Assembly: GCA_964436545.1 (NCBI GenBank)
Contig: CAYTCJ010000006.1
Location: 4,729 to 68,728 of the forward strand
Source of the DNA: an uncultured Candidatus Saccharibacteria bacterium
GTDB taxonomy: Bacteria > Patescibacteriota > Doudnabacteria > UBA920
DNA: 64,000 nt
Direction: 5' to 3'
Shown: piece by piece, positions 1 through 63,539 of the stretch
Position numbering within the stretch: the stretch's first letter is position 1
Layout of the letters: each line of letters opens with the position of its first letter
The notes under the pieces: generated by a model
What the model was told of the DNA's origin: nothing
Seen by the model: the letters and a program-made list of their open reading frames with translations, nothing else
The model's database searches: none
Made by a program: the position numbers and the translations under genes

Positions 1-240
1 CCCCCTCTTAATCTCCCCCATCAAGGGGGAGAAATAAAGCAGAGAAATTGATCTTCCCCATCAAGGGGGAGAAAACAAGCAAGAAAACCTTGCAATTTAT
101 CTCCCTCAGAGTGTATCTAATGTGCGGAAGGTTTAATTAGCTTATTCCCTCCTCTTTGTAGGGAGAGTTAGAGCTTGCCCCGTACTTGATACAGGGGGAG
201 GGGGATTTTGTAGTTTTCCTCCCATGGATATGGGGAGGAC
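1..240. repeat. cluster of short GC-rich hairpin repeats (TCCCCC-atcaa-GGGGGA type); near-identical 24-bp direct copies at 10-33 and 50-73; further hairpins ~217-239
   Basis: Inverted repeats of C-runs/G-runs read directly; GC-rich relative to AT-rich flanks; window edge may truncate. Confidence 0.6.
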
Positions 241-254
241 TAAGGAGGGGTTGA

Positions 255-581
255 CTATTTTAGATATCCCATTATTTTTAAAACTACACCCTCTCTATTT
301 TCTAACACTTCATTATTCCAAAACCTTAAAACTTTAAAACCTTGTTCTTCAAGCCATACATCCCTAACTTTATCATCCTCATTTTGATAATGCTGTCCGC
401 CGTCCAGTTCAATTATAAGCTTTTTTTCATAAGCTACAAAATCGACAATATAACTTCCTATTGGTTCCTGCCTTCGAAATTTATAACCTAAATTTTCCGC
501 CCGCAGTACATACCACAAATATTTTTCGGCATCTGTAAGATTATTTCTAAGCTTGCGTGATAAGATTGTTTTGTTATTCAT
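255..581 (-). CDS. DUF559 endonuclease-domain protein (Vsr-like fold)
   Basis: Motifs EKYLW..L....GYKFRRQ.PIG.YIVDF....KL.IELDGG.H.....D..R...L...G..VLRFWN.EV typical of DUF559. Confidence 0.8.
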   Translation of the reverse strand: MNNKTILSRKLRNNLTDAEKYLWYVLRAENLGYKFRRQEPIGSYIVDFVAYEKKLIIELDGGQHYQNEDDKVRDVWLEEQGFKVLRFWNNEVLENREGVVLKIMGYLK

Positions 582-3202: not shown

Positions 3203-3703
3203 TCAATTCCAGTCCTCTACCACACTTGAGTAAATTTTAACAGATTCAAGAATCTTGTCAACCCCGTTAGAGGCAGGTTGCCCTAGAGCAACCGTAGACA
3301 TGCCAGAGACATGTCGGCCTCTAACGGGGTCAATACCCCTCATAATTACTACGCACACATCTATTTGAGGATTAAGCTCTTTATATTGCTGATTTTGGAT
3401 TAAAAATATTTTAACCGCTTTGAGTATTTTTCTTTGCTTATAAATATCTACGGCATCTAAAGCGTTGCCAAAAAAACCTTTTTCTTCCGCTCTTGTTTTT
3501 ACCTCAACAAATATTATCTTGTTTCCCTGCGTTGCAATAAAATCTATTTCACCTAACCGTTTACCTTTCTTATTATACTCGTTCTGTGCAATAATTTTAT
3601 ATCCTAATTTTTTATATTCTGCCTGAGCCAACTCTTCACCCAGTTGTCCTAAAGTTTTAGGCTTAGCTATGCCCTGAGGAGACTTTTTAAACCAATTTAA
3701 CAT
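3203..3703 (-). CDS. YraN family (UPF0102) endonuclease carrying an in-frame 77-bp palindromic insertion
   Basis: GEIDFIA..G..IIFVEVKTR motif; about 25 extra residues DPVRGRHVSGMSTVALGQPASNGVD encoded by the palindromic element. Confidence 0.75.
   Translation of the reverse strand: MLNWFKKSPQGIAKPKTLGQLGEELAQAEYKKLGYKIIAQNEYNKKGKRLGEIDFIATQGNKIIFVEVKTRAEEKGFFGNALDAVDIYKQRKILKAVKIFLIQNQQYKELNPQIDVCVVIMRGIDPVRGRHVSGMSTVALGQPASNGVDKILESVKIYSSVVEDWN
3257..3333. repeat. family-A palindromic element (GTCAACCCCGTTAGAGG...CCTCTAACGGGGTCAA), in-frame inside yraN-like gene
   Basis: 17-bp terminal inverted repeats plus internal GACATG..CATGTC hairpin; second copy at 10194-10271. Confidence 0.8.
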
Positions 3704-3712
3704 AAGAACAGC

Positions 3713-3790
3713 GTTTAGGCTTTAGCGTTTAGTAAGTAGCCAAAACTGTATAATATTCCGGCTAAACGCTACTTACTACTTACTAAATGC
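3713..3790. repeat. intergenic imperfect inverted repeat built from TAGTAAGTAG / CTACTTACTA and GCGTTTAG / CTAAACGC blocks
   Basis: Read directly; related GTAAGT/ACTTAC low-complexity blocks recur in other intergenic spacers. Confidence 0.5.
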
Positions 3791-4194
3791 TATTTTGGTA
3801 AGTACTTTATTTTTACCTGCTCTTTTTCCCACTGAAGTTTGTCTGTTTGGTAAGTTTTTATTCCTCTAAAAATTAAGGCCCCTAACCAAACTAAAAATAT
3901 TAAGAGTAATAAAATTGCCAAAAAATGCGAACCAAAAAATCTTACTAGCTGTACTCGCGCGCCATACCACACAATTTGCGCTAAACCTAAAAACAAAAAT
4001 GGACCAAACAACTTACCCCGCAATTTGGCATCAATGGGGCTTAGAGCAAATTTTTGGGCTAACTTTAAAATGCCGGCAATAATTAAAGCCACCAAACCTA
4101 AAAATAAAAATAATTTATCTATAGGCTCCACTTGAACTCGGTTAATTTGAAACAAAAATTGTGAAGTAAAAATTGTTTTTAACATAGTTTTCAA
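3790..4194 (-). CDS. hypothetical integral membrane protein (4 predicted TM helices)
   Basis: Hydrophobic segments in translation; no recognisable family. Confidence 0.4.
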   Translation of the reverse strand: MKTMLKTIFTSQFLFQINRVQVEPIDKLFLFLGLVALIIAGILKLAQKFALSPIDAKLRGKLFGPFLFLGLAQIVWYGARVQLVRFFGSHFLAILLLLIFLVWLGALIFRGIKTYQTDKLQWEKEQVKIKYLPK

Positions 4195-4299
4195 CTATAC
4201 AAATTAGTCAAATCAACAAATGTTTACAAATAAATTAAACAAAAACATTTGGTATCCGTAAGTATTTGTAAATTTGTTTTCATTCGCGGATTTGAAAAA

Positions 4300-4833
4300 T
4301 TATTTTAAAAATAACACAGCGTAATGATACCCATCGGCTTCTAAATCTTTCCCTTTTCTAAAGCCTGCTTTCATTAATACCATTTCCGCCATAGTTTGGT
4401 CAAGTCGGTTTTGCATAGGCGGACCAATGGGAGAAAGTTCCTTTTTCCATTCAATTACCACAATTTTCCCCCCGGTTTTAAGGATTCTATACGCATTCTT
4501 TAACAACATTTCTCTGCCTTGGCCAATTTCGTGCATAATATTACTTAACACCACCATATTAACGCTATCGGCTTCTATATCTAAAAGCGGTTTGGCTAAA
4601 TCCGCTCTTACCACTTTAATGTTTCTGTAACCATATTGGTTAGCAATAGAAATGGTGGCAGCGAGTTTACTCTCTTGCACATCTACAGCAATTACCGCAC
4701 CTTCCGGACCGGCTAATTGAGCCGAAGGCAAAACATAAAAGCCATTACCACAGCCGAGGTCAGCCACCACTTCCCCGCGCATGAGTCCGGTTTGGGCAAT
4801 GATTGAAGATGGGTTAATAAATTTTGTTAACAT
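4300..4833 (-). CDS. class I SAM-dependent methyltransferase
   Basis: Motif I VADLGCGNGFY and downstream methyltransferase fold motifs. Confidence 0.75.
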   Translation of the reverse strand: MLTKFINPSSIIAQTGLMRGEVVADLGCGNGFYVLPSAQLAGPEGAVIAVDVQESKLAATISIANQYGYRNIKVVRADLAKPLLDIEADSVNMVVLSNIMHEIGQGREMLLKNAYRILKTGGKIVVIEWKKELSPIGPPMQNRLDQTMAEMVLMKAGFRKGKDLEADGYHYAVLFLK

Positions 4834-4906
4834 TTTGATTTTATCTAAGTCTTATGAGCTCTATCCGACTTATTAGTCTTCAATTTAATTTGAACATATT
4901 GTGAAA

Positions 4907-5197
4907 TTATGTTTCTATATCTTCCTGAGCAGAAACTGCCATGTCAACAGCTAAACTTTCTAATCTACCATACTCGGACATAAGAGCTTGTTGTCTTTCT
5001 TCGAGACTGGCTTTAATAGATTTTCTTTTATATTCAGCTTCAGTTAAATCCTTAAAACTTGGCGCTACGCTCTGTCCAGAAAAAGCTAATTCACTTGCCA
5101 TCCTGGATTCACTAAACCGGCTAGCCAAAGGCATTGTGGAAATTTCGCCAATCAACTCACTAATTTTTTGAATAGCTTCCTGCAGAGGCCTTCCCAC
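4907..5197 (-). CDS. hypothetical small protein (GTG start); possibly 5'-truncated by a frameshift at a T9/A9 homopolymer 5215-5223
   Basis: ORF track; upstream ATG at 5288 in the -1 frame terminates within the homopolymer region. Confidence 0.35.
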   Translation of the reverse strand: MGRPLQEAIQKISELIGEISTMPLASRFSESRMASELAFSGQSVAPSFKDLTEAEYKRKSIKASLEERQQALMSEYGRLESLAVDMAVSAQEDIET

Positions 5198-5308
5198 AGG
5201 TCCTTCTTCAAATCTTTTTTTTTGCTTCTATAACATAAGGAGGTTCAATTTCCCTTACTCCTACTCCTATTTCTATTTTTGGAGTCATGTGATTTTTTAT
5301 TAATCAAA

Positions 5309-6199
5309 CTAATTTATTTCTTGATACAGTTTTTGTATAGCAATAGCCTTGCTGTCATTTCCAATTTCCACTAGCACCCCATTAATACCCATAGCCCCAG
5401 TCTCTTCCAGTTCATTCACAAATTTGGCATTAGGATCTAAAAATTTTACTAAAGCGTTTTCAAATTTTACACCCAAAGCGCTGTCCCGACTGCCAGTCAT
5501 GCCCACATCACTAACATAAGCAGTGCCGTTCTTCATTATATGCGCATCGGCAGTAGCCACATGCGTATGCGTCCCTACCACCACCGACACTCTACCATCT
5601 ACATAAAAACCCAGAGTCTTTTTTTCACTGGTAGCTTCGGCGTGGAAATCTATAAATATTATATCACCTTTTTGCGCTTCGTTCTTAAGTAACTTATCCA
5701 CTTCCCAAAACGGATTACCCAGCTTCCCATCAAAAAACTTTTCACAAAATACCTGCCCGTGAAGGTTAATAACTAGGAATTGTTGATTTTTCATCCTCCC
5801 CTCGCCCTGCTCATCAAGGAAGGGGGAAGATTTTTTTCCCTCCCCTTGGTGGGGAGGGATAGGGAGGGGGGTCAAATTTTTACTAAACCTATAGTACCCA
5901 AACCCGGGAAAACTACCTTCCAAATTAGCCGGACGAATCAGTTTTGGGTATTGTTCAAAACTGACTTTGGCTAATTCCGCTTTATCGAAAATATGATTGC
6001 CGGAAGTAAAACAATCTACTCCTAAGCTGTCAATTTCCGCTAAGGTGGAAGGCGTAACCCCTTTCCCGTGCGCAAGATTTTCTACGTTGATAATGGTGAC
6101 GTCTGGCTGATATTTTTCTTTCCACATAGGCAAAACCTGGGCGAGAATGTTTCGTCCAGGTTTACCCACCACATCACCGATGAATAAGATTTTTGCCAT
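5309..6199 (-). CDS. TIGR00282/YmdB-like metallophosphoesterase with in-frame GC-hairpin insertion
   Basis: MAKILFIGDVVG...GNH...THTHV motifs; extra segment PLPIPPHQGEGKKSSPFLDEQGEG encoded by 5795-5871. Confidence 0.8.
   Translation of the reverse strand: MAKILFIGDVVGKPGRNILAQVLPMWKEKYQPDVTIINVENLAHGKGVTPSTLAEIDSLGVDCFTSGNHIFDKAELAKVSFEQYPKLIRPANLEGSFPGFGYYRFSKNLTPLPIPPHQGEGKKSSPFLDEQGEGRMKNQQFLVINLHGQVFCEKFFDGKLGNPFWEVDKLLKNEAQKGDIIFIDFHAEATSEKKTLGFYVDGRVSVVVGTHTHVATADAHIMKNGTAYVSDVGMTGSRDSALGVKFENALVKFLDPNAKFVNELEETGAMGINGVLVEIGNDSKAIAIQKLYQEIN
5795..5871. repeat. composite family-B GC hairpin element inside ymdB-like CDS (core CCCTCCCC-ttggt-GGGGAGGG at 5838-5858)
   Basis: rc of 5838-5871 is near-identical to intergenic element 587-618. 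Confidence 0.75.
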
Positions 6200-6236
6200 T
6201 TATATTCCACTAATTCACCAATAATTACGAATCACA

Positions 6237-6617
6237 CTAATTTACTACCCTTTTCGTTAATACACCTTTTTTTGAAAAAATTAACAATATTCCTAATTTT
6301 ACACTATTTGACTTCAGATACCCGTAAACCTGCCTAATGTGTTGCGGATATATTTCATTAGCCACCTTAAGCTCTACAACTATTTTTGCATCATCCTTTA
6401 CTAACAAAAAATCTAAATAATATCTACCAATGGATTTTCCTCCTACTTCTAAAGGAGTCAAAAGTTGCTCAGTAACTTTAAACCCCAAATCGACAAAAGC
6501 ATTCTTTAATCCACGATAGTAATATTTCTCCTGATATCCATAACCTAATTCATTAAAAACTTTTATGGCAGCACCTACTATCTCATAACTTTTTTCTTTA
6601 TAAATAAGCTCTGCCAT
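6237..6617 (-). CDS. GxxExxY protein (PD-(D/E)XK-like)
   Basis: YEIVGAAIKVFNELG ... ELKVANEI...Y signature. Confidence 0.75.
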   Translation of the reverse strand: MAELIYKEKSYEIVGAAIKVFNELGYGYQEKYYYRGLKNAFVDLGFKVTEQLLTPLEVGGKSIGRYYLDFLLVKDDAKIVVELKVANEIYPQHIRQVYGYLKSNSVKLGILLIFSKKGVLTKRVVN

Positions 6618-6661
6618 TTTTCGTGTTATTAGTGTTAATTCGTGAATTAGTGGATTATCAA

Positions 6662-8239
6662 TTACCTCGCATATTCTATTACTCTAGTTTCCCTAATCAC
6701 ATGCACTTTAATTTCCCCAGGGAATTTGAGTTCGTTCTGAATTTGATTGGCAATATCTCTAGCCATTTTTTGTGCACCAAAATCATCAACTCTTTCCGGA
6801 AACACAAACACACGAAGCTCTCGCCCGCCTTGAATGGCATAAGTTTTTTGCACACCTTCGTAACCGTTGGCAATATTTTCCAAGTCCGTAAGCCGTTTAA
6901 TATAGTTTTCCAAACTGTCTTTACGAGCCCCCGGACGACTTCCGGAAATATTATCGCACACGTCCACAATTACCGCTTCAATACTGGTAGCTCTCTGGGC
7001 CTTCCCCGATACATCGGTATCGTGGTGATGGCTGGCAATGGCCTCTTTGATTCTTTCGTCTAAACTGAATTTCTCCGCAATCTTCACGCCTAATTCCACA
7101 TGACTACCTTCCAAATCTTGGTCCAAAGCTTTGCCAATATCGTGAAGGAGCGCGCCTTGTTTAACAATATTTACATCCGCGCCTAATTCTTCGGCGAGCA
7201 ATGCGCCAATTTTGGCCATTTCCACACTGTGCCTTAAAATATTTTGCCCATAAGAGGTTCTAAACAACATCCTCCCCACCAAATGCACTAATTTTGGAGG
7301 GAAATTGGTAATACCCAATTCGTAAACGGCTTGTTCGCCGGCTTGTTTAATTTGCTCATTAATTTCCGCCTTGCTCTTCTCATAAGCCTCTTCTATTCTG
7401 GCCGGATGAATTCTGCCATCTACTAATAACTTTTCTAAAGTTAATTTGGCAATATGCCTTCTAATGGCATTAAAGCCCGAGAGCACCACGGTGTCCGGCG
7501 AATCATCTATTAAAATCTCCACGCCCATCATTTGTTCAAAAGCGCGAATATTTCTGCCTTCTTTACCAATAATTCTCCCTTTCATTTCTTCGCTGGGAAT
7601 TTGCACTACCGTGGTAGTAACTTCATTCGTCACTTCGCTCGATACTCTTTCCAAAGCTTGAGCGACTAAATCCCTCGCTTCTTTGTCTGCGGTTTCATAA
7701 GCTTCATTGAGTAATTTCTTTTGCAGATCCGCCATTTCCTCTCTCACCAATTTTTCCGCATTTTCCAAAAGTACTTTTTTGGCGTCTTCTCTGGAAAGTC
7801 CGGCAATTTTTTCCAAATTTTCCAACTGTTTTTGCTTGACCTGTTTGATTTCTTCTTGCAAAACTTTAATTTCTTCTTGCTTGTGTTCAATGTCTTGCTT
7901 GGCTTTGTCCAAATTTAAAGATTTGGTTTCCAAATCTTTTTCTTTTCTATCGACTCTTTCTTCAAACCTTACCATTTGCGCTCGAAAATCCATTTCTTGC
8001 TTTTTGGCACTCTCCACCATTTCCAAAGACTTGGCTTTGGCCTCTAACAGCATTTCTTTTTCTTTATTTTTTGCCTCATCTAAAATTCTTTCAGCCTTGG
8101 CTTCCGCGCTTCCAATTTTTTTGCCTGCCAAATGCTGACGAATGGCATAGCCTATCCCAATCCCTAACACAGTACCAACCACTAAATACATAAGCATTAA
8201 CATAAAAAATACCTTACATCGGCAATGTAAAGCTGGCAA
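6662..8239 (-). CDS. rny: ribonuclease Y (alternative start at 8203)
   Basis: N-terminal TM, long coiled coil, KH domain (GRIIGKEGRNIR), HD domain (LLHDIGK...HH). Confidence 0.9.
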   Translation of the reverse strand: MPALHCRCKVFFMLMLMYLVVGTVLGIGIGYAIRQHLAGKKIGSAEAKAERILDEAKNKEKEMLLEAKAKSLEMVESAKKQEMDFRAQMVRFEERVDRKEKDLETKSLNLDKAKQDIEHKQEEIKVLQEEIKQVKQKQLENLEKIAGLSREDAKKVLLENAEKLVREEMADLQKKLLNEAYETADKEARDLVAQALERVSSEVTNEVTTTVVQIPSEEMKGRIIGKEGRNIRAFEQMMGVEILIDDSPDTVVLSGFNAIRRHIAKLTLEKLLVDGRIHPARIEEAYEKSKAEINEQIKQAGEQAVYELGITNFPPKLVHLVGRMLFRTSYGQNILRHSVEMAKIGALLAEELGADVNIVKQGALLHDIGKALDQDLEGSHVELGVKIAEKFSLDERIKEAIASHHHDTDVSGKAQRATSIEAVIVDVCDNISGSRPGARKDSLENYIKRLTDLENIANGYEGVQKTYAIQGGRELRVFVFPERVDDFGAQKMARDIANQIQNELKFPGEIKVHVIRETRVIEYAR

Positions 8240-8478
8240 TACAAAATTTAACTGAGAACCTCAGTTTAAATAATCTTTTTGAGAACTGGCTCGATTCGGA
8301 AAAATAAAGTTTTCACGGAACTAATCAATAAAAGATAAATTTTGTCTGCTTAAGCCTACCATTGCGGAATTAATCAATAATTACTACTAAAAATAGTATA
8401 CCTAAATTTGTGATTTTCGTCAAACCGGATTATAATAAAAATACTTTGATTCTTTATTCTTAATCTTAAATCTAGCTT

Positions 8479-9063
8479 ATGAAACATATCCTTCCCAAGC
8501 TCAACTACGCTTACTCTGACTTAGAGCCATACATCGATGCCAAAACTATGGAACTGCACCACACCAAACACCACCAAACTTATGTAGATAAATTAAATAC
8601 TGTTTTGGAAAAATATCCGGAACTACAAGGCAAGCCGGTTGAAGAGCTTTTGATGAACATTACCGGTTTAGATGTCCAAGAAGCGGACAAAATCCAGATT
8701 ATAAACCATGGCGGAGGGCACCACAATCACACACTTTTTTGGCAATACTTAAACCCTCAAAATAAAAAAGACGATATGCTTGTGAAAGAAATATCATCTC
8801 TTTTTGGATCTATTGAAGATTTTAAAAAACAATTTTCAGATTCTGCTCTAAAAGTTTTCGGCTCAGGCTGGACTTGGCTGGTTCGAAATGGTTCAAATTC
8901 CAAACTTGAGATTAAAAATTTTCCTAACCAAGACTCGCCTTTGATGTCGGGTTTTCAACCGATACTTGGACTAGATGTTTGGGAACACGCCTATTATTTA
9001 AAATATCAAAACAAAAGAGCGGAATATATTGAAAACTGGTGGAAGGTAATTAAGGCGCTCTGA
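8479..9063 (+). CDS. sodA: Fe/Mn superoxide dismutase
   Basis: LPKLNYAYSDLEPYIDAKTMELHHTKHHQTYV, DVWEHAYY motifs. Confidence 0.9.
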   Translation: MKHILPKLNYAYSDLEPYIDAKTMELHHTKHHQTYVDKLNTVLEKYPELQGKPVEELLMNITGLDVQEADKIQIINHGGGHHNHTLFWQYLNPQNKKDDMLVKEISSLFGSIEDFKKQFSDSALKVFGSGWTWLVRNGSNSKLEIKNFPNQDSPLMSGFQPILGLDVWEHAYYLKYQNKRAEYIENWWKVIKAL

Positions 9064-9104
9064 TATCAATGAATGTTTTATAAGTAAAAAAACTATTTAC
9101 TCAA

Positions 9105-9368
9105 TTAGATGTTAGGATTTGTGTGATTACCTGCTGTATATAGCCATTCACCCATATCAACTGTGACGTTGCTTAGTACATCTTTTTTCATTAAATGCTT
9201 AGTTTTACCATTGACCCAAAACTGAAAATCTCTTCCACTAATGTTGTGGTTAATAACCACGCCAAACAGACATCGCCTAAGAGCTGTCATTACTGATTCT
9301 GGGACTGTTTCTATACCTATTTCCAGAGAAGCAGGTATTGACTTAAATTCATCCGGATTTCTGTTCAT
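9105..9368 (-). CDS. hypothetical small protein
   Basis: ORF only; no recognisable domain. Confidence 0.3.
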   Translation of the reverse strand: MNRNPDEFKSIPASLEIGIETVPESVMTALRRCLFGVVINHNISGRDFQFWVNGKTKHLMKKDVLSNVTVDMGEWLYTAGNHTNPNI

Positions 9369-9432
9369 AAATTTTTTAATATTTTTTTTAACATACCTAA
9401 TTCTTTAACGCTTGTCAAAAACCTCACAATAT

Positions 9433-9472
9433 AAAACACCCTACTTAGTGTAAGTTTAAGCAGGGTGTTTTT
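9433..9472 (-). terminator. rho-independent terminator hairpin downstream of rplS
   Basis: AAAACACCCT...AGGGTGTTTT 10-bp stem flanked by T/A runs. Confidence 0.6.
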
Positions 9473-9499
9473 ATATTATTGAAACTATTAATCGCTCTA

Positions 9500-9853
9500 C
9501 TATTTTTTCACTACTTTAGTTTTTCTGATTCTCGGATTATTATCTTTTCTTTCTCGGACGTAATACAACTTGGCCTTCCGGACATTGTCTGCCTTTACCA
9601 CTTCTAATTTAGAAATATTAGGTGAATGCAGAGGAAAAATTCTTTCCACCCCCACTCCATGCGAGATTTTTCGCACCATAAAACTGGCGTTGGCACCACT
9701 ACCCCCTTTACGGGCAATTACTAAACCTTCAAAAATTTGAGTTCTCTCTTTACCCCCTTCTTTAATGAGTTGGTGAATTTTTACAGTATTACCCACTCGA
9801 AAATCGGGTAAAGTTTTAAGCTGAGCAGTATCTAAATGTTTTATATAAGGCAT
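9500..9853 (-). CDS. rplS: 50S ribosomal protein L19
   Basis: Full-length similarity to bL19 ([23 protein letters not shown]). Confidence 0.95.
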
Positions 9854-9923
9854 TGGATTATGAAGTATGAATTAAGAAGCAAGAATTATGAATAAGCAAA
9901 ACTTAATTCATAACTCACCCACT

Positions 9924-10961
9924 TTATAATTGATTAACTATTTTAGAATTTAAAGTTATTAGCACCTGTCGTAAATCTTCCGGTACTTGGCTTTCCGCTT
10001 CTATCCATGTGCCATCGGGCAACTGCACTTCAATTTTTTTAGCGTGGAGGAATTGGCGGTCCAGCCCGACTAATTTGGACAATTTTCCGCCATATAACTC
10101 ATCGCCCATTAACGGATGGCCTACAGATGCCATATGTACACGAATTTGGTGCGTTCTACCTGTGTGCAATTTTACCATAAGCAGAGTGCAAGTGTCAACC
10201 CCGTTAGAAGTATGGCGCGTTAACGCGCCAGCAGTCCCGACTCGACAGGACTGACTTCTAACGGGGTCAACCACCTCCAAATATTCCAAAACCTGATATT
10301 CGGTTAACGCTTCCTTGGGTTCCAAAATATTTTTAGTATCCTGCTTTCTAAAATCGGTTTGGCTCTTACCCAAGGGCTTGTCTATAAATCCATGCTGTTT
10401 TTCCACCTTACCTTTTACTAAAGCCAAATATTCTTTTTTAATTTTTCTCTCCGCAAAAGCATTTTTTAAAAACTCATACATAGCCTGCGAAGTAGCCACT
10501 AAAATTACCCCACTGGTGTCTTTGTCCAAACGGTGCACAATACCCGGCCTATGTTCTTCTCCAACCAAATGGATATTTTGAAATTGATAGAGCAACGCAC
10601 TCGCCAAAGTCTCGCCTTTAAACCCCGCCCCCGGGTGCACCACTAATCCGGGTGGTTTATCTATAATTAATAAATTATGATTATGGTATAAAACCTTAAG
10701 TGGAGTATTGGTTGGCTTAATGGCCGAAGATTGCTTAGAATGTTCAGACGCCTGATACTCAATGACATCTCCCAACCGCACCACATGCTTAGATTCCCAG
10801 ACCGGCTTACCGTTCACCATAACCAAACCAGCTTCAATTTCGCGTTGAATTTGTGACCGGCTCAGATTTTTGATGCTTTCCACCAAATATTTATCCAACC
10901 GAATTTTAAATTGTTCAACTGTAAATTTGTGGCTCATATTATCAACATACCACCCGAACAC
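9924..10961 (-). CDS. rluD: RluA-family 23S rRNA pseudouridine synthase (RluD-like, N-terminal S4 domain) with in-frame 78-bp palindromic insertion
   Basis: S4 domain, HRLDKDTSGVILVA and TGRTHQIRVH motifs; extra VDPVRSQSCRVGTAGALTRHTSNGVDT segment encoded by 10194-10271. Confidence 0.85.
   Translation of the reverse strand: MFGWYVDNMSHKFTVEQFKIRLDKYLVESIKNLSRSQIQREIEAGLVMVNGKPVWESKHVVRLGDVIEYQASEHSKQSSAIKPTNTPLKVLYHNHNLLIIDKPPGLVVHPGAGFKGETLASALLYQFQNIHLVGEEHRPGIVHRLDKDTSGVILVATSQAMYEFLKNAFAERKIKKEYLALVKGKVEKQHGFIDKPLGKSQTDFRKQDTKNILEPKEALTEYQVLEYLEVVDPVRSQSCRVGTAGALTRHTSNGVDTCTLLMVKLHTGRTHQIRVHMASVGHPLMGDELYGGKLSKLVGLDRQFLHAKKIEVQLPDGTWIEAESQVPEDLRQVLITLNSKIVNQL
10194..10271. repeat. family-A palindromic element (GTCAACCCCGTTAGAAG...CTTCTAACGGGGTCAAC) with internal perfect palindrome GGCGCGTTAACGCGCC, in-frame inside rluD-like gene
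   Basis: Terminal 17-bp inverted repeats are the same as in 3257-3333; both copies translate to DPVR...SNGVD. Confidence 0.85.
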
Positions 10962-39526: not shown

Positions 39527-40360
39527 TTATCGATATTGATTAATTTCATCTCGGAGTTTTTTTGCTTCTTCTTGAGGGTTATTTGCAAAAATTATCCCGC
39601 GGGAGGAGTTAATAATCATGCCTAATTTTTGTGAATTGATGCCCGCTTTAACCACCGCTTCTACATCTCCACCTTGGGCGCCCACTCCCGGCACTAACAA
39701 AGTCATATCACCCACTATTGCCCGAACCACCTTCATTTCCTCAGGGTAAGTGGCGCCCACCACCAGCATACAATTGTGGTTATAATTCCAGTCTTGGGAT
39801 ACTTTTTCTGCCACCATTTGCCAAATGGATTTCACCCCTCCCTTACCCTCCCCATCTAGGGGAGGGAACGGCACACAAAGATCTTGCAATTCTCCGGCTC
39901 CGGGATTAGAAGTCCGACAGAGAATAATCGATGCTTTATCTGCCCTGTCTAAAAATGGTTTTAAGGCTTCTTTGCCTAAGTACGGATGTAAAGTAATCGC
40001 ATCAAAACCCATTTCATCAAATACCGCTTTCACATAACCTAAATTAGTATTGCCAATATCCGCCCGTTTGGCATCACATATGGTTAAAACATCCGGATAT
40101 TTATTCTGCAAATAATTTATGGTCATTTTTAACTCTTTTAAACCCTGTTCACCTCTGGCTTCATAAAATGCCATGTTGGGCTTAAAGGCAGAAACAAATT
40201 CTACAGTCTCATCTATTATCCATTTATTAAACTCAAACTGAGGAAACTCTTTGGCTTTAAAATCGGCAGGAATTTTTTCAAACTCACTATCTAAACCCAC
40301 ACACACTAAAGAATTAACTTTTTTGGCTCTTAAATTATATTTTTCAATATTTTGATGCAT
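39527..40360 (-). CDS. pyrF: orotidine 5'-phosphate decarboxylase (long type) with in-frame GC-hairpin insertion
   Basis: LVCVGLDSE, MAFYEA motifs; inserted PFPPLDGEGKGG encoded by 39834-39866. Confidence 0.85.
   Translation of the reverse strand: MHQNIEKYNLRAKKVNSLVCVGLDSEFEKIPADFKAKEFPQFEFNKWIIDETVEFVSAFKPNMAFYEARGEQGLKELKMTINYLQNKYPDVLTICDAKRADIGNTNLGYVKAVFDEMGFDAITLHPYLGKEALKPFLDRADKASIILCRTSNPGAGELQDLCVPFPPLDGEGKGGVKSIWQMVAEKVSQDWNYNHNCMLVVGATYPEEMKVVRAIVGDMTLLVPGVGAQGGDVEAVVKAGINSQKLGMIINSSRGIIFANNPQEEAKKLRDEINQYR
39834..39866. repeat. family-B element CCCCTCCCTTACCCTCCCC-atcta-GGGGAGGG, 33 bp, in-frame in pyrF
   Basis: Near-identical to 587-618; length divisible by 3. Confidence 0.8.
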
Positions 40361-40365
40361 AAAAA

Positions 40366-40995
40366 TTATTTTAATCCTTTTGCTTCCAAATATTTTTTCC
40401 CATGGCCGACTTGAGTGTTAATGGGCACCCCGGCCTCACACAAGGGGCATTCGCCATCTTTAAAAGTGGGTACCTCAAACTCATCTAAAGGTAAAAATTT
40501 TGTCCCGAAGAATTCCGCATTCACAATTTTCGGACTGCGGTTAACCATCACCGACACCGCCACCACTTCCCCGCCGACTACCTTAACCGCTTCCACCACT
40601 TTTTTGGCTGACTCGCCGGTAGTAGTTAAATCTTCTACCACATAAACTTTCTTACCGGTGATGAATTTATCGTACCCTCTGGTAAAAGCCATACCCCCTT
40701 CTGCGGTTTTTTCCGTATACACTCCGAAAACTTCTCGATTGGTTAAAAGAGTTAAGTGATGCGCGGTCCAAGTAGAAAGAATAATTCCTCCCAAAGCTGG
40801 ACCCACAACAACTTCCACCCCTAAATCCTTGACCTTTTCTGCAAATAATTTACACACTTCTGAGGTGTCCTCAGTATGCGGGTAAAGCGCATCTTTATTT
40901 ATGTAAGTGGCAAAATGCGCGCCACTGGTGCCCACAAAATGACTGTCCGTTATCACTGCCCCACTTTTTTTTAACAAATCTAAGACTTTACTCAT
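40366..40995 (-). CDS. pyrE: orotate phosphoribosyltransferase-like PRTase
   Basis: PRPP-binding motif KVYVVEDLTTTGES; operon context pyrD-pyrF-pyrE. Confidence 0.75.
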   Translation of the reverse strand: MSKVLDLLKKSGAVITDSHFVGTSGAHFATYINKDALYPHTEDTSEVCKLFAEKVKDLGVEVVVGPALGGIILSTWTAHHLTLLTNREVFGVYTEKTAEGGMAFTRGYDKFITGKKVYVVEDLTTTGESAKKVVEAVKVVGGEVVAVSVMVNRSPKIVNAEFFGTKFLPLDEFEVPTFKDGECPLCEAGVPINTQVGHGKKYLEAKGLK

Positions 40996-42436: not shown

Positions 42437-42482
<46 letters not shown>

Positions 42483-42523
42483 TACTGGTTTTTTCAACCC
42501 CGCACCAAAATCATATTATTAGA

Positions 42524-42616
42524 TGGCGGAAGGGGTGGGATTTGAACCCACGGTCCCGATAATCTCGGGACAGCGCGTTTCGAGTGCGCCGCACTAGACC
42601 ACTATGCGACCCTTCC
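42524..42616 (-). tRNA. tRNA-Ser (anticodon CGA), long variable arm
   Basis: Anticodon loop CTCGAAA; variable arm TGTCCCGAGATTATCGGGAC; T arm CGTGGGTTCAAATCCCACC; encoded CCA; one A-C mismatch in anticodon stem. Confidence 0.75.
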
Positions 42617-44020: not shown

Positions 44021-45835
44021 TTATATATACTGGTCGCCCCAATCGTTTTGAAACAAAATAACATCATTCGGCTGTAAAAGATTTTTTAATTCCGCATGAG
44101 CTTGTTCTGCACTATTAAACCATATAATAATTGGTAAGTTGTAAGTTGTAAGTTGTAAGTTCTCTCTCTTGCTTAATTCATAATTCTTAATTCCTAATTC
44201 TATGTATCCAGTTACGCTATTCCTAATAAGTATAACCACATCTGCCACCTTTGCCAACTGCTTGCCAATCTCTAAATGGACTGTTTTTACTTCACTCCCT
44301 GTTTCCACCAACCCCGGAGTAATATAAATTTTTCTTCGGTTAGGAAACTGAGCCAAAGTTTTTATGGCTTCTTTGACCCCAACTGAATTCCCATTATACG
44401 CATCATCAATCACCAAAATATTTCCCGGTCTTAAAATAGGTTCTAAACGATGCTTCACAGGTTGAATTTTTTCTATACCTTGTTTGATTGCTTCGTTACT
44501 CATACCCAACTCTCTCGCTATGCTTATAGCGCAGTCCACATCTCCAAGTGCATACTCTCCAAGTAATTTTACAAAAATTTTCACTCCCTTTCCTTCTTCT
44601 CCTGAATTAAAGTTTCCTCTTTCTCCTTCTTCTCCTGAATTAAAGTCTCCTCTTTCTCCTTCCCGCCGTGAATTAGAGCTTTCTCTTTCTCCTTCTTTTT
44701 CTGAATTAAAGTTTCCTCTTTCTCTTTCTTCTCCTGAATTAGAGCTTTCTCTTTCTCCTTCCCCTCCTATATTAGTGTTGCCCCTCGCTTCTTCCCCCCC
44801 TATATTAGGGGGGGTTAGGGGGGGTATTTCCAATTCCCAACCTAATCTCACTGCATCAAACTTTGCATGTTTGATATTTGATATTTGATATTTGATATTT
44901 TTTTGCTTGGGTAAAATATAATTTTGATAATTCTCCACAACATTTTCATCGTCCCCATTTAATAAACAGAGTGCATCCGCTTTGGCATTTTGCACAATTT
45001 CAAAAATGGTTTGCGTAACTGCTTTTATACTGCCCATTCTTTCCAAATGCGCTTCGCTAATCCCTGTCACTACCGCCATATCCGGTTTCACCAAACTGCA
45101 AATGGCTTTTATGTCGCCTTTGTAGTGCTCCCCCATTTCGATAATAGCAATTTCAATATTTTCTTCTCCCTTTAGGGGAGAAGGTGCCTGCGGGGCAGAT
45201 GAGGGGTTGGGGGCATTAAAATTTTTCAACACCCACCTCGCTATCCCGACCGGCGTATTCACACTCTCCGGTGTGGCAAACACCTGAAACCTCAAACCCA
45301 AAACCGCTTTCAAAACTTCCTTCATAGTCGTCTTACCATAACTTCCGGCAATCCCAATAATCGACAGCTCTTTACGGGCTGTCGCCCCGGGCGAGTGCAT
45401 CCGAGACCCGAGATCCGGTGCCACAGTCAAACTTTGAATTTTTGATTTAGCCTTATAAATAATTACCTGTTTTAATAACCAATCCACTGGCCATAAAATT
45501 ACTATCCCGATTAAATAAAAAATAAAAAATAAAAAATAAAAAATTAACAAATAAACAAACCCTAAAAACCATAATTCATAATTCTTAATTCCTAATTCTG
45601 GCAAGCGGTCTAAAAACTTCCAGAAAATTAACCATGGCAGAGTTAGATAAAGCCCGATTGCCAATAACAAAATTAGGGTCGCTTTTCCTGTCCAGACTAA
45701 ACTCTTTCTCATGGGCGCCTTGGGTGGAAAATACCCTTTTTGCCGGAGTAACTTTAAATACCGTCCCAGCTCGTAATTTTCCAGCTGTAAAAGATAAAGT
45801 TGATATTTAATGATTTTTATAAGATTTACTAACAT
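44021..45835 (-). CDS. Mur ligase family protein (MurF-like by ddl adjacency) with atypical N-terminal TM extension, internal 13-aa tandem repeats and GC-hairpin insertions
   Basis: GIAGSYGKTTMKE P-loop, Mur ligase middle and C domains; N-terminal 150 aa hydrophobic; true start uncertain. Confidence 0.65.
   Translation of the reverse strand: MLVNLIKIIKYQLYLLQLENYELGRYLKLLRQKGYFPPKAPMRKSLVWTGKATLILLLAIGLYLTLPWLIFWKFLDRLPELGIKNYELWFLGFVYLLIFYFLFFIFYLIGIVILWPVDWLLKQVIIYKAKSKIQSLTVAPDLGSRMHSPGATARKELSIIGIAGSYGKTTMKEVLKAVLGLRFQVFATPESVNTPVGIARWVLKNFNAPNPSSAPQAPSPLKGEENIEIAIIEMGEHYKGDIKAICSLVKPDMAVVTGISEAHLERMGSIKAVTQTIFEIVQNAKADALCLLNGDDENVVENYQNYILPKQKNIKYQISNIKHAKFDAVRLGWELEIPPLTPPNIGGEEARGNTNIGGEGERESSNSGEERERGNFNSEKEGERESSNSRREGERGDFNSGEEGERGNFNSGEEGKGVKIFVKLLGEYALGDVDCAISIARELGMSNEAIKQGIEKIQPVKHRLEPILRPGNILVIDDAYNGNSVGVKEAIKTLAQFPNRRKIYITPGLVETGSEVKTVHLEIGKQLAKVADVVILIRNSVTGYIELGIKNYELSKRENLQLTTYNLPIIIWFNSAEQAHAELKNLLQPNDVILFQNDWGDQYI
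44105..44132. repeat. GTAAGTT x4 tandem heptamer inside the Mur ligase 3' region
   Basis: Read directly. Confidence 0.7.
44172..44203. repeat. 28-bp direct repeat TAATTCATAATTCTTAATTCCTAATTCT, copy 1 (copy 2 at 45568-45598); both inside the Mur ligase ORF, both encode LGIKNYEL
   Basis: Exact 28-mer identity read directly. Confidence 0.85.
44581..44830. repeat. about five tandem ~39-bp repeats encoding 13-aa GE(E/R)G.R..(N/S)(F/S)NS units, followed by C7/G7 hairpin CCCCCCCTATATTAGGGGGGG
   Basis: Read directly; in-frame in Mur ligase. Confidence 0.8.
45163..45183. repeat. family-B-like hairpin CTTCTCCC-ttta-GGGGAGAAG in-frame in Mur ligase (encodes SPLKGEE)
   Basis: 8-bp stem. Confidence 0.6.
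45568..45598. repeat. 28-bp direct repeat copy 2 (see 44172-44203)
   Basis: Exact identity. Confidence 0.85.
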
Positions 45836-45871
45836 ATCTTTTTCGAGTGGACAATTCGCGCGAATTGTCCA

Positions 45872-46801
45872 CTAAATAAATTTAGCTAAAATTTTTACAA
45901 ACTCCTCAGGCTGATCCAAAAAACTATAATGTCCGGCATTCTTTAAAATTAGCAATTGGGAATTGGGAATTAAAAAATTCATTCGCTTCCCAAAAGCAAT
46001 TGGCGTATCCTTGTCGTCCTCGCCGGTAATTATCAAAGTTGGGATTGTAATATCCTTCATATCCTTACTTAAATCTTCGTTCACCACTTTTAAAAAAGTT
46101 TCCTTTAACGCGGGTAGAGCTAAATAATCTTCTGCCCCCAGGCTATGATAAATTTTTTTTCTCAAACCTTGCATGAATCCCGGTTTAAAAATCGGTTTAA
46201 TAATTTTAGCCACAACGCCCATTAAATTTTTTTTCCAGGCTGATGTAACAAACCCAGCGCTATCAACTAAAACCAATTTTAATATCACCCCCTGTCCCCC
46301 TCTTATTTTAAGAGGGGGGAACGGATTCGGGAGATTTGACATAGCGCACAGCTTAATTCCTACCCGCCCACCAAAACTGTGCCCCACTATAATGACATTT
46401 TTTAATGCCAACTTTTCTATAAACGCTTTGACAATTTCCGCGTAATCCCCCACACTCATTCCGTATTTTATTTCCTCTCCCTTGTGGGGAGGGTTAGAGC
46501 CTGCCCTGAGCGATAGCCGAATGGGGAGGGGGGAATCTCCAAACCCCGGCAAATCCAAAGCATAAATTGTGTACTGCTGATTTACTGACTGGCTAATTAA
46601 CTTACTAACTTCCCCCCACACTTCCTTACTACTCCCCCAACCATGCAAAAACAACAAACACTTATCGCCTGTCGATTGTGTGCCTACATAACTAATTAAT
46701 TGGTTATTGATAATTATTTGATTTTTTTCCATAAACATATAATACATTGCCCAATAGCTATTTACAATATATAATATCCAAGTAAAAATGGAATGTAGCA
46801 T
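45872..46801 (-). CDS. alpha/beta-hydrolase-fold protein with two in-frame GC-hairpin insertions
   Basis: HGWGSS, GHSFGG nucleophile elbow, C-terminal GHYSF; insertions at 46287-46324 and 46474-46540. Confidence 0.75.
   Translation of the reverse strand: MLHSIFTWILYIVNSYWAMYYMFMEKNQIIINNQLISYVGTQSTGDKCLLFLHGWGSSKEVWGEVSKLISQSVNQQYTIYALDLPGFGDSPLPIRLSLRAGSNPPHKGEEIKYGMSVGDYAEIVKAFIEKLALKNVIIVGHSFGGRVGIKLCAMSNLPNPFPPLKIRGGQGVILKLVLVDSAGFVTSAWKKNLMGVVAKIIKPIFKPGFMQGLRKKIYHSLGAEDYLALPALKETFLKVVNEDLSKDMKDITIPTLIITGEDDKDTPIAFGKRMNFLIPNSQLLILKNAGHYSFLDQPEEFVKILAKFI
46287..46324. repeat. GC hairpin CCCCCTCTT-atttt-AAGAGGGGGG in-frame in hydrolase (encodes NPFPPLKIRGGQG)
   Basis: 9-bp stem. Confidence 0.7.
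46474..46540. repeat. composite GC hairpins CCTCTCCC-ttgt-GGGGAGGG ... GGGGAGGGGGG in-frame in hydrolase (encodes ...NPPHKGEEI...)
   Basis: Read directly. Confidence 0.65.
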
Positions 46802-46824
46802 ACTGGGGGGTACACACGCCCTGT

Positions 46825-46970
46825 CCCATTAAATATTTTTCATTATTCATGATATTCTGCTGGTGCACTACGGGATGTAGTATACCGGTAGTACGCGCGC
46901 TTCGGGTGCGCGAAGACAGGGTTCAATTCCCTGCATCCCGACCAGCAGAATATAATGAATATTTAATGGG
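46825..46970. repeat. long imperfect inverted repeat (CCCATTAAATATT...ATTCTGCTGGT / ACCAGCAGAAT...AATATTTAATGGG) enclosing tRNA-Pro
   Basis: Outer 13-bp and inner 11-bp arms perfectly complementary. Confidence 0.7.
46871..46944 (+). tRNA. tRNA-Pro (anticodon CGG)
   Basis: Acceptor CGGGATG/CATCCCG, anticodon stem-loop CGCGC-TTCGGGT-GCGCG, T arm CAGGGTTCAATTCCCTG, encoded CCA. Confidence 0.8.
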
Positions 46971-61377: not shown

Positions 61378-61607
61378 TTAAATTTACCCATAAAATTAAG
61401 GCGTAAATAACGCCACTGGTTTAAATCTTCTAACTTTACCCGGCTTTTAGGTTTGGTCTATAACCATAAACAATGAATTGATTTTTCTCTGCAAATCAAG
61501 TATAATCAATCAATCCCGTTAGAAGTTTATTCTAAAAAATTAGATACTACGGGGTAAATAAAAAAGGACGAGAATTTTAATAACATTGATAAATAACCTC
61601 TAACAGG

Positions 61608-63539
61608 ATGGATATTTCCAGCTTATCATCGCAATTAAATATTTCCACTCAAGATCTCCGCGCCAAAGCTAAAGAGAAGGGTTTTTTTATATCCCCGAGA
61701 GCCAATAAAATTGACAACCAGTTGGCTAAACAAATTTTAGAAGCTTTACAAACCGCGGTGGTAGCAAAAGTTCAAGCTCCGGCGGACACAGTGACCAAAA
61801 AACAAATTAAACTACCCGCTTATATTAAAGTTAGAGATTTTGCCACCTTAATTAATTTACCGGTTACGGACATCATCAAAAACTTAATCCATAACGGGAT
61901 TATGGCAACGCTTAACGAAGAGATTGATTTTGAAACGGCGTCCATCGTGGCATCGGATTTGGGTTTTGAAGCCGAAACTCAAGTGGATAACACCGAAGCG
62001 GAATTTGGGATGGCGTTTTTACAAAAAGTGATTACCAACGAAAAACCGGAAACTTTAAAAACCCGGCCTCCGATTGTCGCCATTATGGGACACGTGGACC
62101 ATGGCAAAACCACTTTGCTTGATACTCTCAGAAAAACCAAAATCGCCGAAGGCGAAAGCGGAGGCATTACTCAGCACATTGGCGCTTACCGAGTTAAACA
62201 TAACGGCAAATGGATTACTTTTTTAGATACTCCGGGTCATGAAGCCTTTAGCGAAATGCGCGCCAGAGGTGCTAACGTAACCGACATTATTGTTTTAGTC
62301 GTCTCGGCCGATGACGGCGTTAAACCTCAGACCTTGGAAGTAATTAACCGAGCTAAATTTACCGACACGCCTTTAATAGTGGCCATAAATAAAATCGATA
62401 AACCCGAAGCGAACATTTTGCGCGTTAAACAAGAATTGGCCAGCGCCAATGTCTTAACCGAAGAATGGGGCGGTAAAACCATTGCTTGCGAAATCAGCGC
62501 CAAACAAAATATTGGCTTAGATAATTTATTGGAAATGATTTTGCTCACTGCGGAATTAGAAACCTTTAAAGCCAACCCCGAAGGTCAAACCGTGGGCACT
62601 GTGATTGAATCTAAAGTTATGCAAGGTAAAGGCCCTACCGCGACTATTCTTATTCAGAACGGCACCCTTAAATTAGGCGATATTGTTTCAGCCGGACCGG
62701 CGTTTGGCCGAATTCGTTCCTTGGAAGACGAACATGGTAAAAAATTAAAAGAAGTTTTACCCAGTATGCCGGCACAAGTTTCCGGCCTCTCCGAACTTCC
62801 GCATGCCGGAGACGTCATTCAGGTTTTTACTGACTTAGACAAAGCCAAACAAGTCGCCATTATTACTCAAAAGAAATTAAAAACTCATAAACTCTCGGCG
62901 CGCAAACTCAGTGGCGATTTAACCAGCAAAACTTTAAACCTGATTATTAAAGCCGATGTGGCCGGCTCACTGGAAGCCATTAAACAATCGATTGCCAAAT
63001 TAAAAAACGACGAGGTAAAAATTAACATTTTATCGGAAGGCATTGGCGAGGTGAACGAGTCCGATTGTTTGCTGGCCTCCAGCAGTAAAGCTACTGTGAT
63101 AGCTTTTCGAACCAAAGTAAACCCCAAAGCCGTTAGTCTGGCTAAACTCAAACAAGTTACCATAGATTCCTACGATGTCATCTACGAATTAATTGAAGCG
63201 GTAACCAAAGCAGTAATTGAAATGTTTACTCCGGAAACGGAAAAATTTATTTTAGGCAAAGCCAAAGTTTTAGCGGTCTTTATGACCGAAAAAAACCATA
63301 TGATTGTCGGAGGCCGAGTGGAAGAAGGGGAGCTAAAAAAAATCAGTCATATTAATATCATCCGAGAAGATAAAGAATTGGGTCGGGGGGATATCATGGA
63401 ATTACAACAAAATAAAGTTGCCAGCAAGGGCGTACTGGCTGGCAGTGAATTTGGCATTAAACTTAAAACTCCGGTGAAAATTAAAGTGGGCGATGTGCTG
63501 GAAAGTTTTGAAGAAAAAATTAAAACCAAAACCTTATAA
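61608..63539 (+). CDS. infB: translation initiation factor IF-2
   Basis: G domain GHVDHGKTTLLD, DTPGHEAF, NKID; C-terminal IF2 domains. Confidence 0.95.
   Translation: MDISSLSSQLNISTQDLRAKAKEKGFFISPRANKIDNQLAKQILEALQTAVVAKVQAPADTVTKKQIKLPAYIKVRDFATLINLPVTDIIKNLIHNGIMATLNEEIDFETASIVASDLGFEAETQVDNTEAEFGMAFLQKVITNEKPETLKTRPPIVAIMGHVDHGKTTLLDTLRKTKIAEGESGGITQHIGAYRVKHNGKWITFLDTPGHEAFSEMRARGANVTDIIVLVVSADDGVKPQTLEVINRAKFTDTPLIVAINKIDKPEANILRVKQELASANVLTEEWGGKTIACEISAKQNIGLDNLLEMILLTAELETFKANPEGQTVGTVIESKVMQGKGPTATILIQNGTLKLGDIVSAGPAFGRIRSLEDEHGKKLKEVLPSMPAQVSGLSELPHAGDVIQVFTDLDKAKQVAIITQKKLKTHKLSARKLSGDLTSKTLNLIIKADVAGSLEAIKQSIAKLKNDEVKINILSEGIGEVNESDCLLASSSKATVIAFRTKVNPKAVSLAKLKQVTIDSYDVIYELIEAVTKAVIEMFTPETEKFILGKAKVLAVFMTEKNHMIVGGRVEEGELKKISHINIIREDKELGRGDIMELQQNKVASKGVLAGSEFGIKLKTPVKIKVGDVLESFEEKIKTKTL

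Follow-up and report, generated by a model that had tools for sequence, protein, structure and literature searches.

We analysed a stretch of 64,000 nucleotides (hereafter the window; contig CAYTCJ010000006.1) from an uncultured Candidatus Saccharibacteria bacterium, placed by GTDB in the Doudnabacteria, and found that it carries three copies of a short palindromic element. Two are inserted in frame into unrelated genes, one for a YraN-like protein and one for a pseudouridine synthase of the RluA/RluD type (here RluD), and a degenerate third copy adjoins the start codon of infB. We consider these copies, with a probability of about 0.8, to be non-autonomous DNA transposons of the cut-and-paste type, similar to miniature transposable elements with inverted repeats (MITEs) and to the Rickettsia palindromic elements (RPEs), and translated where they lie in frame. 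This reading is carried by the anatomy of the copies, a 4-bp duplication at their ends, their presence and absence among orthologues, a distribution over many phyla, and the spectrum of sites at which they are found. Both host genes look essential, in a bacterium with a tiny genome, and the closest named relatives of their products belong to Candidatus Doudnabacteria (Patescibacteria, or Candidate Phyla Radiation, CPR).

Anatomy of the genic copies and their empty sites

On the gene strand, both genic copies have the form GTTGAC-CCCGTTAGARG-(44 nt)-CYTCTAACGGG-GTTGAC and translate as ..(V/I)DPVR...SNGVD.. inside minus-strand open reading frames (ORFs) whose frame is intact (Table 1). The sequence-only reading of the window had placed the two copies correctly and had noticed that they are in frame and share the flanking peptides, which our translation confirmed. 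It had described a 78-bp element with 17-bp terminal inverted repeats (TIRs) that adds about 25 residues. The insertion stands, but the element proper is 68 bp long, and together with a 4-bp duplication the net gain per insertion is 72 bp, that is exactly 24 codons. Perfect complementarity extends over 14 bp (3261-3274/3317-3330 and 10198-10211/10254-10267), and 17 bp are reached, in both copies, only on the minus (gene-sense) strand with the help of two G-U pairs. The repeat strings quoted earlier are present, but they belong to that strand; on the plus strand the right ends read CCTCTAACGGGGTCAAT and CTTCTAACGGGGTCAAC. The outer GTCAAC lies outside the inverted repeat and contains the 4-bp direct repeat TCAA.

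The interiors of copies 1 and 2 have no sequence relatedness, and each forms two GC-rich hairpins, as the palindromes reported earlier had indicated. Folding, which had been proposed as a check, yielded a Y-shaped three-way junction for both (-48.7 and -57.9 kcal/mol for copies 1 and 2, z = -6.6 and -8.0). The GC content of the elements is 57%, versus 38.7% for the window, and a scan allowing at most 2 mismatches per arm returned 3 arm pairs in the window, versus 0.18 in shuffled sequence. The excess of arm pairs, the fold z-scores and the GC contrast together mean that the elements of the window are not a product of chance. A covariance model (R1) detected just the two Y-shaped copies in the window; the model-fitted alignment (A3), which lists both strands of each palindromic copy, was kept out of the covariation statistics.

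Comparison with orthologues revealed both genes in an insert-free state. Among 120 relatives of RluD, the shortest proteins (312-316 aa) lack the insert and read ..YKVLEELS-SGVDKYTL.., and DPVRS...SNGVD stands at exactly that point in the window protein and a handful of relatives. At the DNA level, an uninserted orthologue has TCC GGG GTT GAC AAA with a single GTTGAC, where the window has GTT GAC [element] GTT GAC. The YraN proteins of 137-142 aa likewise lack the insert (..VILKA-VDK..); in others the site holds DPVR..SNGVD, its variant form DPVKS..LFNRVD, a decayed copy, an insert of another family (DFSRL..KY..DGVDK) or a tandem pair of elements. The status of both segments as insertions, proposed from the window alone, was thus borne out by the alignments, and the same peptide is missing from most orthologues, so that it is not a conserved feature of either protein.

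The RluD insert would contribute the peptides EVVDPVR, SQSCR and HTSNGVDTCTLLMVK; the host residues around it are EVVD and TCTLL, and the gene-strand sequence that borders it is GTGGTTGAC before and ACTTGC after. In an AlphaFold2 model of the window protein (mean predicted local distance difference test score, pLDDT, 82), residues 238-254 score below 50, and the insert is predicted to be a floppy connecting loop between two beta strands, which agrees with the loop placement expected earlier. Many other RluD relatives have unrelated inserts at the same point, which makes the RluD loop a hotspot for insertion; judged from the aligned sequences, the same can be said of the YraN loop. Across the Doudnabacteria, the unrelated insert families seen in these loops comprise SD..S.KSE.. 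repeats, ..HPxxxGHLLPQGEKG.., ..SPSPQSSPLKGEEG.. and the already mentioned DFSRL..KY..DGVDK, at times two in tandem.

Table 1. Positions of the elements, their parts and their host genes in the window, with the sites of a second palindrome family
Feature	Position	Strand	Remarks
Host gene 1, YraN/UPF0102-like	3203..3703	-	166 aa; relatives carry PF02021; insert reads GIDPVRGRHVSGMSTVALGQPASNGVDK
Element copy 1	3262..3329	none assigned	68 bp; covariance model E=3e-11
Copy 1, TIRs	3262-3274 / 3317-3329		C-CCCGTTAGAGG-C ... G-CCTCTAACGGG-G
Copy 1, inner hairpins	3276-3293; 3297-3315		GGTTGC..GCAACC; GACATG..CATGTC
Copy 1, flanking direct repeat	3258-3261 (left); 3330-3333 (right)		TCAA
Host gene 2, RluA/RluD-type pseudouridine synthase	9924..10961	-	345 aa; PF00849 and PF01479 (S4)
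RluD insert	residues ~231-256		VVDPVRSQSCRVGTAGALTRHTSNGVD; between strands 220-229 and 257-265
Element copy 2	10199..10266	none assigned	68 bp; covariance model E=1e-16
Copy 2, TIRs	10199-10211 / 10254-10266
Copy 2, inner hairpins	10213-10230; 10232-10253		TGGCGCG..CGCGCCA; CAGTCC..GGACTG
Copy 2, flanking direct repeat	10195-10198 (left); 10267-10270 (right)		TCAA
Element copy 3	61514..61608		degenerate; start-codon class; last base coincides with A of the infB ATG
Copy 3, arms	61515-61525 (left); 61597-61607 (right)		CCCGTTAGAAG; CCTCTAACAGG
infB (IF-2)	61608..63539	+	start codon directly after copy 3
Second palindrome family	145-206; 5792-5877; 39830-39870; 44760-44830; 45160-45215; 46470-46540

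A family in many phyla, its ends and its sites

To find further copies, we scanned contigs of a one-genome-per-species collection for the exact pattern CCCGTTAGARG-N30-60-CYTCTAACGGG and obtained at least 119 loci, where about 4 chance matches would be expected by a rough estimate that assumes uniform base composition; metagenome contigs gave at least 120 further loci. The copy statistics below refer to the genome set and the independent metagenome set, among the matches listed. The hosts belong to many classes of Patescibacteria, to Planctomycetota (Pirellulales, Phycisphaerae), Omnitrophota, Elusimicrobiota, Ratteibacteria, Nitrospirota, Nitrospinota and to Delta- and Gammaproteobacteria, and one contig was binned as Nanoarchaeota. 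Neither this host range nor copy 3 had been part of the sequence-only reading, which had named a restriction to two copies with no sign of mobility as the outcome that would speak against it; there are instead the third copy, at least 240 loci elsewhere, and nested copies (L006, L029, L046, L103; L numbers are our locus labels). Two loci of one Elusimicrobia metagenome-assembled genome (L066 and L082) differ in a single base. Among the matches listed, the metagenome-assembled genomes richest in copies include JAZDMB01, CAYHEP01 and CBDUMF01. Carriage by phages or plasmids was considered and rejected, since only 2 viral contigs (IMG/VR) matched, annotated plasmids gave chance-level matches only, and annotated phages gave none.

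Members of the family range in size from 53 to about 144 bp and are mostly of 55-80 bp, with longer versions of 100-144 bp, and no ORF fits inside. Some interior sub-families are common to several phyla; a hairpin CAGWCGCC-nnn-GGCGWCT beside one arm, for instance, occurs in Patescibacteria, Omnitrophota, Elusimicrobia and Ratteibacteria. The family further includes mini-hairpins and variants of the ends (CCCGTTAGAGAC, CCCGTTAGAAAT). As a separate observation, 10 of the 119 listed genome loci (L030, L038, L039, L059, L061, L068, L096, L107, L114, L115) have a pilB/gspE-like ATPase gene, which in 7 of them is accompanied by an adjacent pilC/gspF-like gene; these may be orthologous old insertions or a favoured neighbourhood.

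The consensus of the family is Y-CCCGTTAGARG ... CYTCTAACGGG-R, with TIRs of 12-13 bp, a variable interior and the ends YCCCGTTAGARG. Positions -1 and +1 are complementary (C..G or T..A) in 94% of the genome set (n=125) and 98% of the metagenome set (n=124 with usable flanks). Each of the positions -5 to -2 is identical to its counterpart at +2 to +5 in a fraction of 0.70-0.78 (genome; about 0.27 expected from composition) and 0.81-0.87 (metagenome), and identity at the pairs -6/+1 (0.50 and 0.47) and -1/+6 (0.45 and 0.44) is lower. A perfect 4/4 direct repeat was found in 152 of 247 listed copies, versus 13.9 (maximum 23) with shuffled partners. These flank statistics therefore define the element as Y-CCCG...CGGG-R with a 4-bp direct repeat. 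The repeat has the form T-N-N-A in 122 of the 152 perfect cases (TGAA/TTCA 39, TAAA/TTTA 36, TCAA/TTGA 28, TTAA 5). A 6-bp duplication RTNNAY was rejected, as its outer positions agree in 44-50% only, while -1 and +1 are complementary in 94-98%.

The copies occupy a narrow range of sites. In each set, 22-24 in-frame copies lie in long ORFs in the PVR..SNG frame and a few in the PLE..LLTG frame. Every intragenic copy found is free of stop codons, with a length divisible by 3; altogether, 64/124 genome and 82/125 metagenome copies have such a length. In a start-codon class of 28 (genome) and 30 (metagenome) copies, the start codon (ATG or GTG) of a real gene follows the right end directly, for example at the N-terminal ends of MreB, TyrRS, L4, AhcY, a response regulator and RelA, and the left repeat is often ATGNAY as well. 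Measured from the right end, the ORF start lies at distance 0 in a spike of 15 (genome) and 14 (metagenome) copies, nearly all other distances have 1 copy, and no other distance has more than 3 copies; the terminal R and a duplicated TGNA recreate the start codon. In 8 genome and 8 metagenome copies, the host ORF stops at the TAG within the arm (the third frame), in others the stop codon lies inside the duplicated TAAA or TGAA, and still others are in spacers. No gene-breaking copy was found: 6 of the 7 candidates listed first turned out to be intergenic or junk when re-tested by virtual excision. The candidate loci for interrupted genes (L004, L013, L025, L032, L034, L065, L066, L116) are intergenic, at a gene start, or junk.

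Relation to known systems and rival explanations

The elements share with MITEs a small size, the lack of transposase coding, TIRs, a target site duplication (TSD), multiple dispersed copies and insertion polymorphism; neither the window nor some 1.5 Mb of DNA flanking the loci, a limited search space, yielded an autonomous insertion sequence (IS) with the same ends. Bacterial MITEs with intragenic or 5'-UTR (untranslated region) copies include Correia/NEMIS, ERIC, the Coxiella QMITE and cyanobacterial MITEs (PMC10969869). Like these, the present elements are small, non-coding, multi-copy and hairpin-forming, have TIRs and a TSD, and occur as in-frame ORF fusions or in leader position. Known MITE families, however, keep to one genus or family, and a parent IS can usually be identified for them, whereas our search returned no parent and identical ends extend from Patescibacteria to Planctomycetota and Proteobacteria. 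We know of no description of an exact start or stop codon preference in those MITE families.

In-frame insertion in unrelated conserved genes at permissive sites, as found here, is typical of RPEs, which, in the part of PMC10969869 that draws on Ogata et al. 2000 and 2002, are elements of about 100-150 bp, confined to Rickettsia, with a conserved peptide per family. As far as that description goes, the likeness lies in short palindromes inserted in frame in unrelated housekeeping genes, with a peptide compatible with the fold, copies also between genes and no known autonomous parent (PMC10969869). The present elements differ in being mostly 55-80 bp long, with some of up to 135 bp, in conserving the end peptides PVRS and SNG alone, in their clear 4-bp duplication and in their occurrence in many phyla. 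Compared in this way, by description, the resemblance appears to be functional only. The earlier proposal that selfish palindromic DNA has been incorporated into proteins here, in the manner of RPEs, nevertheless holds up well in view of insert-free orthologues, multiple copies, flanking duplications, nested and near-identical copies, and placement in loops. In the full-text literature searched, we found no relevant paper with these end sequences and none linking MITEs with CPR.

As to the mobilising enzyme, piggyBac/IS1380 transposons produce a 4-bp duplication centred on T..A (TTAA, with the variants TCAA and TAAA) and have TIRs with a 5' CCC motif (PMC10813416). The element duplications TGAA, TAAA, TCAA and TTAA and the ends (Y)CCCG are similar; differences are the extra Y/R pair outside CCC and a target T-N-N-A that overlaps the reported variants but is not TTAA-specific, as the counts given above demonstrate. 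No transposase of the DDD/DDE type of this family bounded by the ends was present in the loci examined. A piggyBac/IS1380-like enzyme as the mobiliser is thus a lead suggested by analogy, not a result.

With an enzyme of this or another kind supplied in trans, the element would integrate in a cut-and-paste manner into T-N-N-A sites and duplicate those 4 bp. Insertions would then persist only where they are harmless, so that T-N-N-A targeting and purifying selection would together set the site spectrum: in permissive surface loops, in frame and stop-free, where about 24 extra residues would be read, mostly in the ..PVRS...SNG.. frame; precisely at start codons, with ATG or GTG rebuilt from the terminal R and the duplicated TGNA; at or beside stop codons; and in spacers between genes. 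The family may in addition move horizontally among co-habiting bacteria of groundwater and sediment, and its spread across phyla fits the gene exchange among Patescibacteria, Omnitrophota and others documented in aquifers (PMC12455944). We infer both the transposition chemistry and the role of selection as cause of the site spectrum.

Several points weigh against the transposon interpretation. There was no transposase or long element with these ends in the roughly 240 loci (about 1.5 Mb) or in the window, a limited search space, which leaves the mechanism of mobility a presumed one. When 709 ORFs of the 119 loci were clustered all against all, only housekeeping families emerged (pilB/pilC, FtsI, aminoacyl-tRNA synthetases, EF-G, ABC transporter). 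Arms without a partner and pairs of arms lying far apart proved to be decayed or nested copies, or bracketed genes for a P-type ATPase, an FAD-dependent oxidoreductase or ribosomal proteins, and the window ORFs at 50-60 kb included no transposase. For a MITE family, 11-nt ends that do not differ between phyla are unusual; their identity is partly an ascertainment effect of scans with an exact pattern. The roughly 30-fold excess of insertions exactly on start codons is explained, through selection or targeting, by inference alone. As far as direct proof is concerned, translation of the insert is argued from the conservation of the frame. Finally, the compensatory pairing in the RluD copies, described next, could mean selection on structure and not pure selfishness.

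Another way to account for the copies is a functional structured RNA with a cis-regulatory or processing role (an RNase III site, a leader structure or a small RNA, sRNA), in which selection keeps the Y-shaped fold and the fit to the coding frame is secondary. This is in accord with the very stable folds, with the many copies directly 5' of start codons and with the better folding of the gene-sense strand, through G-U pairs, in both genic copies of the window. In orthologous RluD copies, compensatory double changes moreover keep both inner hairpins paired, as hairpin 1 goes from TGGCGCG/CGCGCCA through TGGTGCG/CGCACCA to TGATGCG/CGCATCA and hairpin 2 from CAGTCC/GGACTG to CAGACG/CGTCTG. At the level of sequence, these changes show a pressure to stay palindromic. 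Compensatory change in DNA palindromes can, however, also come from templated correction in a hairpin (quasi-palindrome mutagenesis), and since such correction at the DNA level, or replacement by other copies, gives the same pattern, the changes do not establish an RNA function. The sense strand has no advantage in the family, the antisense strand being the more stable in 17/22 in-frame copies (p=0.02), the count between strands is 13 to 15 in the start-codon class, and both orientations of the interior occur relative to the host gene. The start-codon copies are mostly AT-rich inside (mean inner GC 0.39), and 37/126 interiors overall are significantly structured. Rfam had no match to the elements at the gathering score or at E<=10; in the window only tRNAs passed, and the best sub-threshold hits on elements (E of at least 1.2) were microRNA or sRNA noise. 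The infB copy is decayed in a relative with 93% identical IF-2 and absent from relatives at 73-77% identity, which speaks against a conserved leader function. Taken together, we regard an RNA function as improbable.

A palindrome derived from repetitive extragenic palindromic sequences (REP/REPIN) or from IS200/IS605 (a palindrome-associated transposable element, PATE), mobilised as a single-stranded hairpin by a Y1 enzyme (RAYT/TnpA), would be rich in hairpins and without coding capacity, as our elements are. Copy 1 and a sub-family do have GTAG/CTAC where the two inner hairpins join, and no classical transposase is nearby. The GTAG is not at the 5' end of the element, though, and is absent from copy 2. 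Y1 transposition (IS200/IS605) leaves no target duplication, whereas true TIRs and a 4-bp duplication are present here. The copies are intragenic, not extragenic, and REPINs co-evolve with a genome-specific RAYT, while the present ends are identical across phyla. The REP/REPIN class was hence rejected on the basis of its 5' GTAG/CGTC tag, in place of which the elements have YCCCG ends, of the intragenic copies and of the lack of a recurrent Y1 gene in the loci, and an origin of this kind has little to recommend it. Integron attC sites were also rejected, as GTTAGA/TCTAAC stand in reverse order here (GTT.. first), internal to CCC/GGG and inside genes.

It is very unlikely that the segment is removed or skipped, either as a mini-intron or by translational bypass with the direct repeat as take-off and landing codons. 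Bypass elements (the T4 gene 60 gap, Magnusiomyces mitochondrial byps) are likewise short GC-rich hairpin insertions in coding sequence between matching codons. The direct repeat here is codon-aligned (GTT GAC ... GTT GAC), a strong hairpin begins at the putative take-off site, and the upstream repeat at gene starts is often ATG NAY, after which comes a short ORF whose end lies within the element. Known bypass elements, however, need not keep the frame and usually have a stop after the take-off codon, whereas the genic copies here all keep the frame and are stop-free, those of the window having no stop after the putative take-off codon. Removal would lift the frame constraint, yet the intragenic copies and the length statistics given above follow it, and third-frame copies end the ORF at the TAG of the arm. 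Splicing or ribosome hopping was rejected because no gene-breaking copy was healed by virtual excision, the 6 re-tested candidates being intergenic or junk after it. An ordinary lineage-specific protein loop with incidentally palindromic DNA, to which the homologous peptide at the same position in several Doudnabacteria orthologues might point, is already refuted by the distribution data, as most orthologues lack that peptide, the loop is predicted to be disordered, and two unrelated proteins, the start of a gene and hundreds of other, unrelated contexts share the same DNA element.

The mini-transposon reading, which we thus prefer, makes this a new family of a type already known; unusual are the breadth of hosts with identical ends, the precision at start and stop codons, the reused protein loops and the missing parent. 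It extends the phenomenon of coding palindromes, best known from Rickettsia, to the CPR and well beyond, and presents the RluD and YraN loops as recurrent landing pads for several element families, which accounts for a large part of the differences in length between CPR orthologues. The pattern ..PVRS...SNG.. between a repeated codon pair can serve in annotation as a signature of non-native segments in proteins and structure models, identical ends in distant phyla of the same habitats as a sensitive marker of subsurface DNA exchange, and the search for new enzymes has a concrete goal in the missing transposase. More tentatively, and with the odds rather against it, all copies could belong to a single pan-phylum mini-transposon that spreads horizontally in subsurface habitats (CPR, Omnitrophota, Planctomycetota, Elusimicrobiota, Nitrospirota, Proteobacteria) by means of an unrecognised trans-acting enzyme, piggyBac/IS1380-like or of a new type, whose T-N-N-A targeting prefers start codons (A|TGAA), stop codons (TAAA/TGAA) and xTN-NAY codon pairs. 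If this were true, the element would be a general source from which streamlined genomes gain new 5' leaders and new loops in their proteins.

The infB copy and other repeats of the window

The segment 61513-61524, suspected earlier to be a remnant of the element, is indeed derived from it, but it is the left arm of a third copy whose right arm adjoins the ATG of infB. By folding, the interior of copy 3 is AT-rich and unstructured. In the relative with the 93% identical IF-2, the left arm is kept, the interior is unalignable and the right arm has decayed, and in the relatives at 73-77% identity the element is absent upstream of infB; by this comparison of sequences, copy 3 is lineage-specific and decaying.

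We also inspected the region upstream of infB for -10-like boxes (about 61495-61514 in the window, and the loci L128 and L130). In the window, a TATAAT lies just upstream of the left arm, so that copy 3 sits between this box and the infB ATG, and L130, one of the relatives at 73-77% identity that lack the element, has a matching -10-like box, TATAGT, some 9 nt ahead of its infB ATG. This suggests that the infB mRNA of this clade could be very short or leaderless. In L127 (about 440-600; 77% identical IF-2), about 50 nt of the N-terminal coding sequence of infB (ATGGATTTATCATCCCTCTCC) are duplicated upstream of the true start, and the two infB-start repeats are separated by a GC-rich insert of about 80 nt, an insertion of another type at the infB start codon.

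A second family of GC-rich palindromes (of the CCCTCCCC...GGGGAGGG type) translates to ..PLPxPPxxGEG.. motifs, and at least 5 of its copies lie in frame in long minus-strand ORFs, at 5312-6199 (YmdB-like), 39530-40417, 44024-45871 (two copies) and 45875-46828. The genome thus carries several families of coding palindromes. The window also contains a GC-rich island at 55487-56671 (and 55.6-57.3 kb; GC 0.67-0.72, versus 0.39 for the window) with an ORF of 394 aa, which looks horizontally acquired. At 42440-42507, a GC-rich tRNA-like fragment, not called by ARAGORN or Rfam, with a T-arm-like GGGTTCAAATCCCTC on the minus strand adjoins tRNA-Ser (42524-42616). In the region 46871-47051, the 3' end of tRNA-Pro (..TTCAATTCCCTGCATCCCGACCA, about 46916-46941) recurs about 100 nt downstream (about 47027-47051), and a 26-nt inverted repeat (46839-46864 / 46941-46966) brackets the tRNA gene; these repeats could be the remnant of an integration site.

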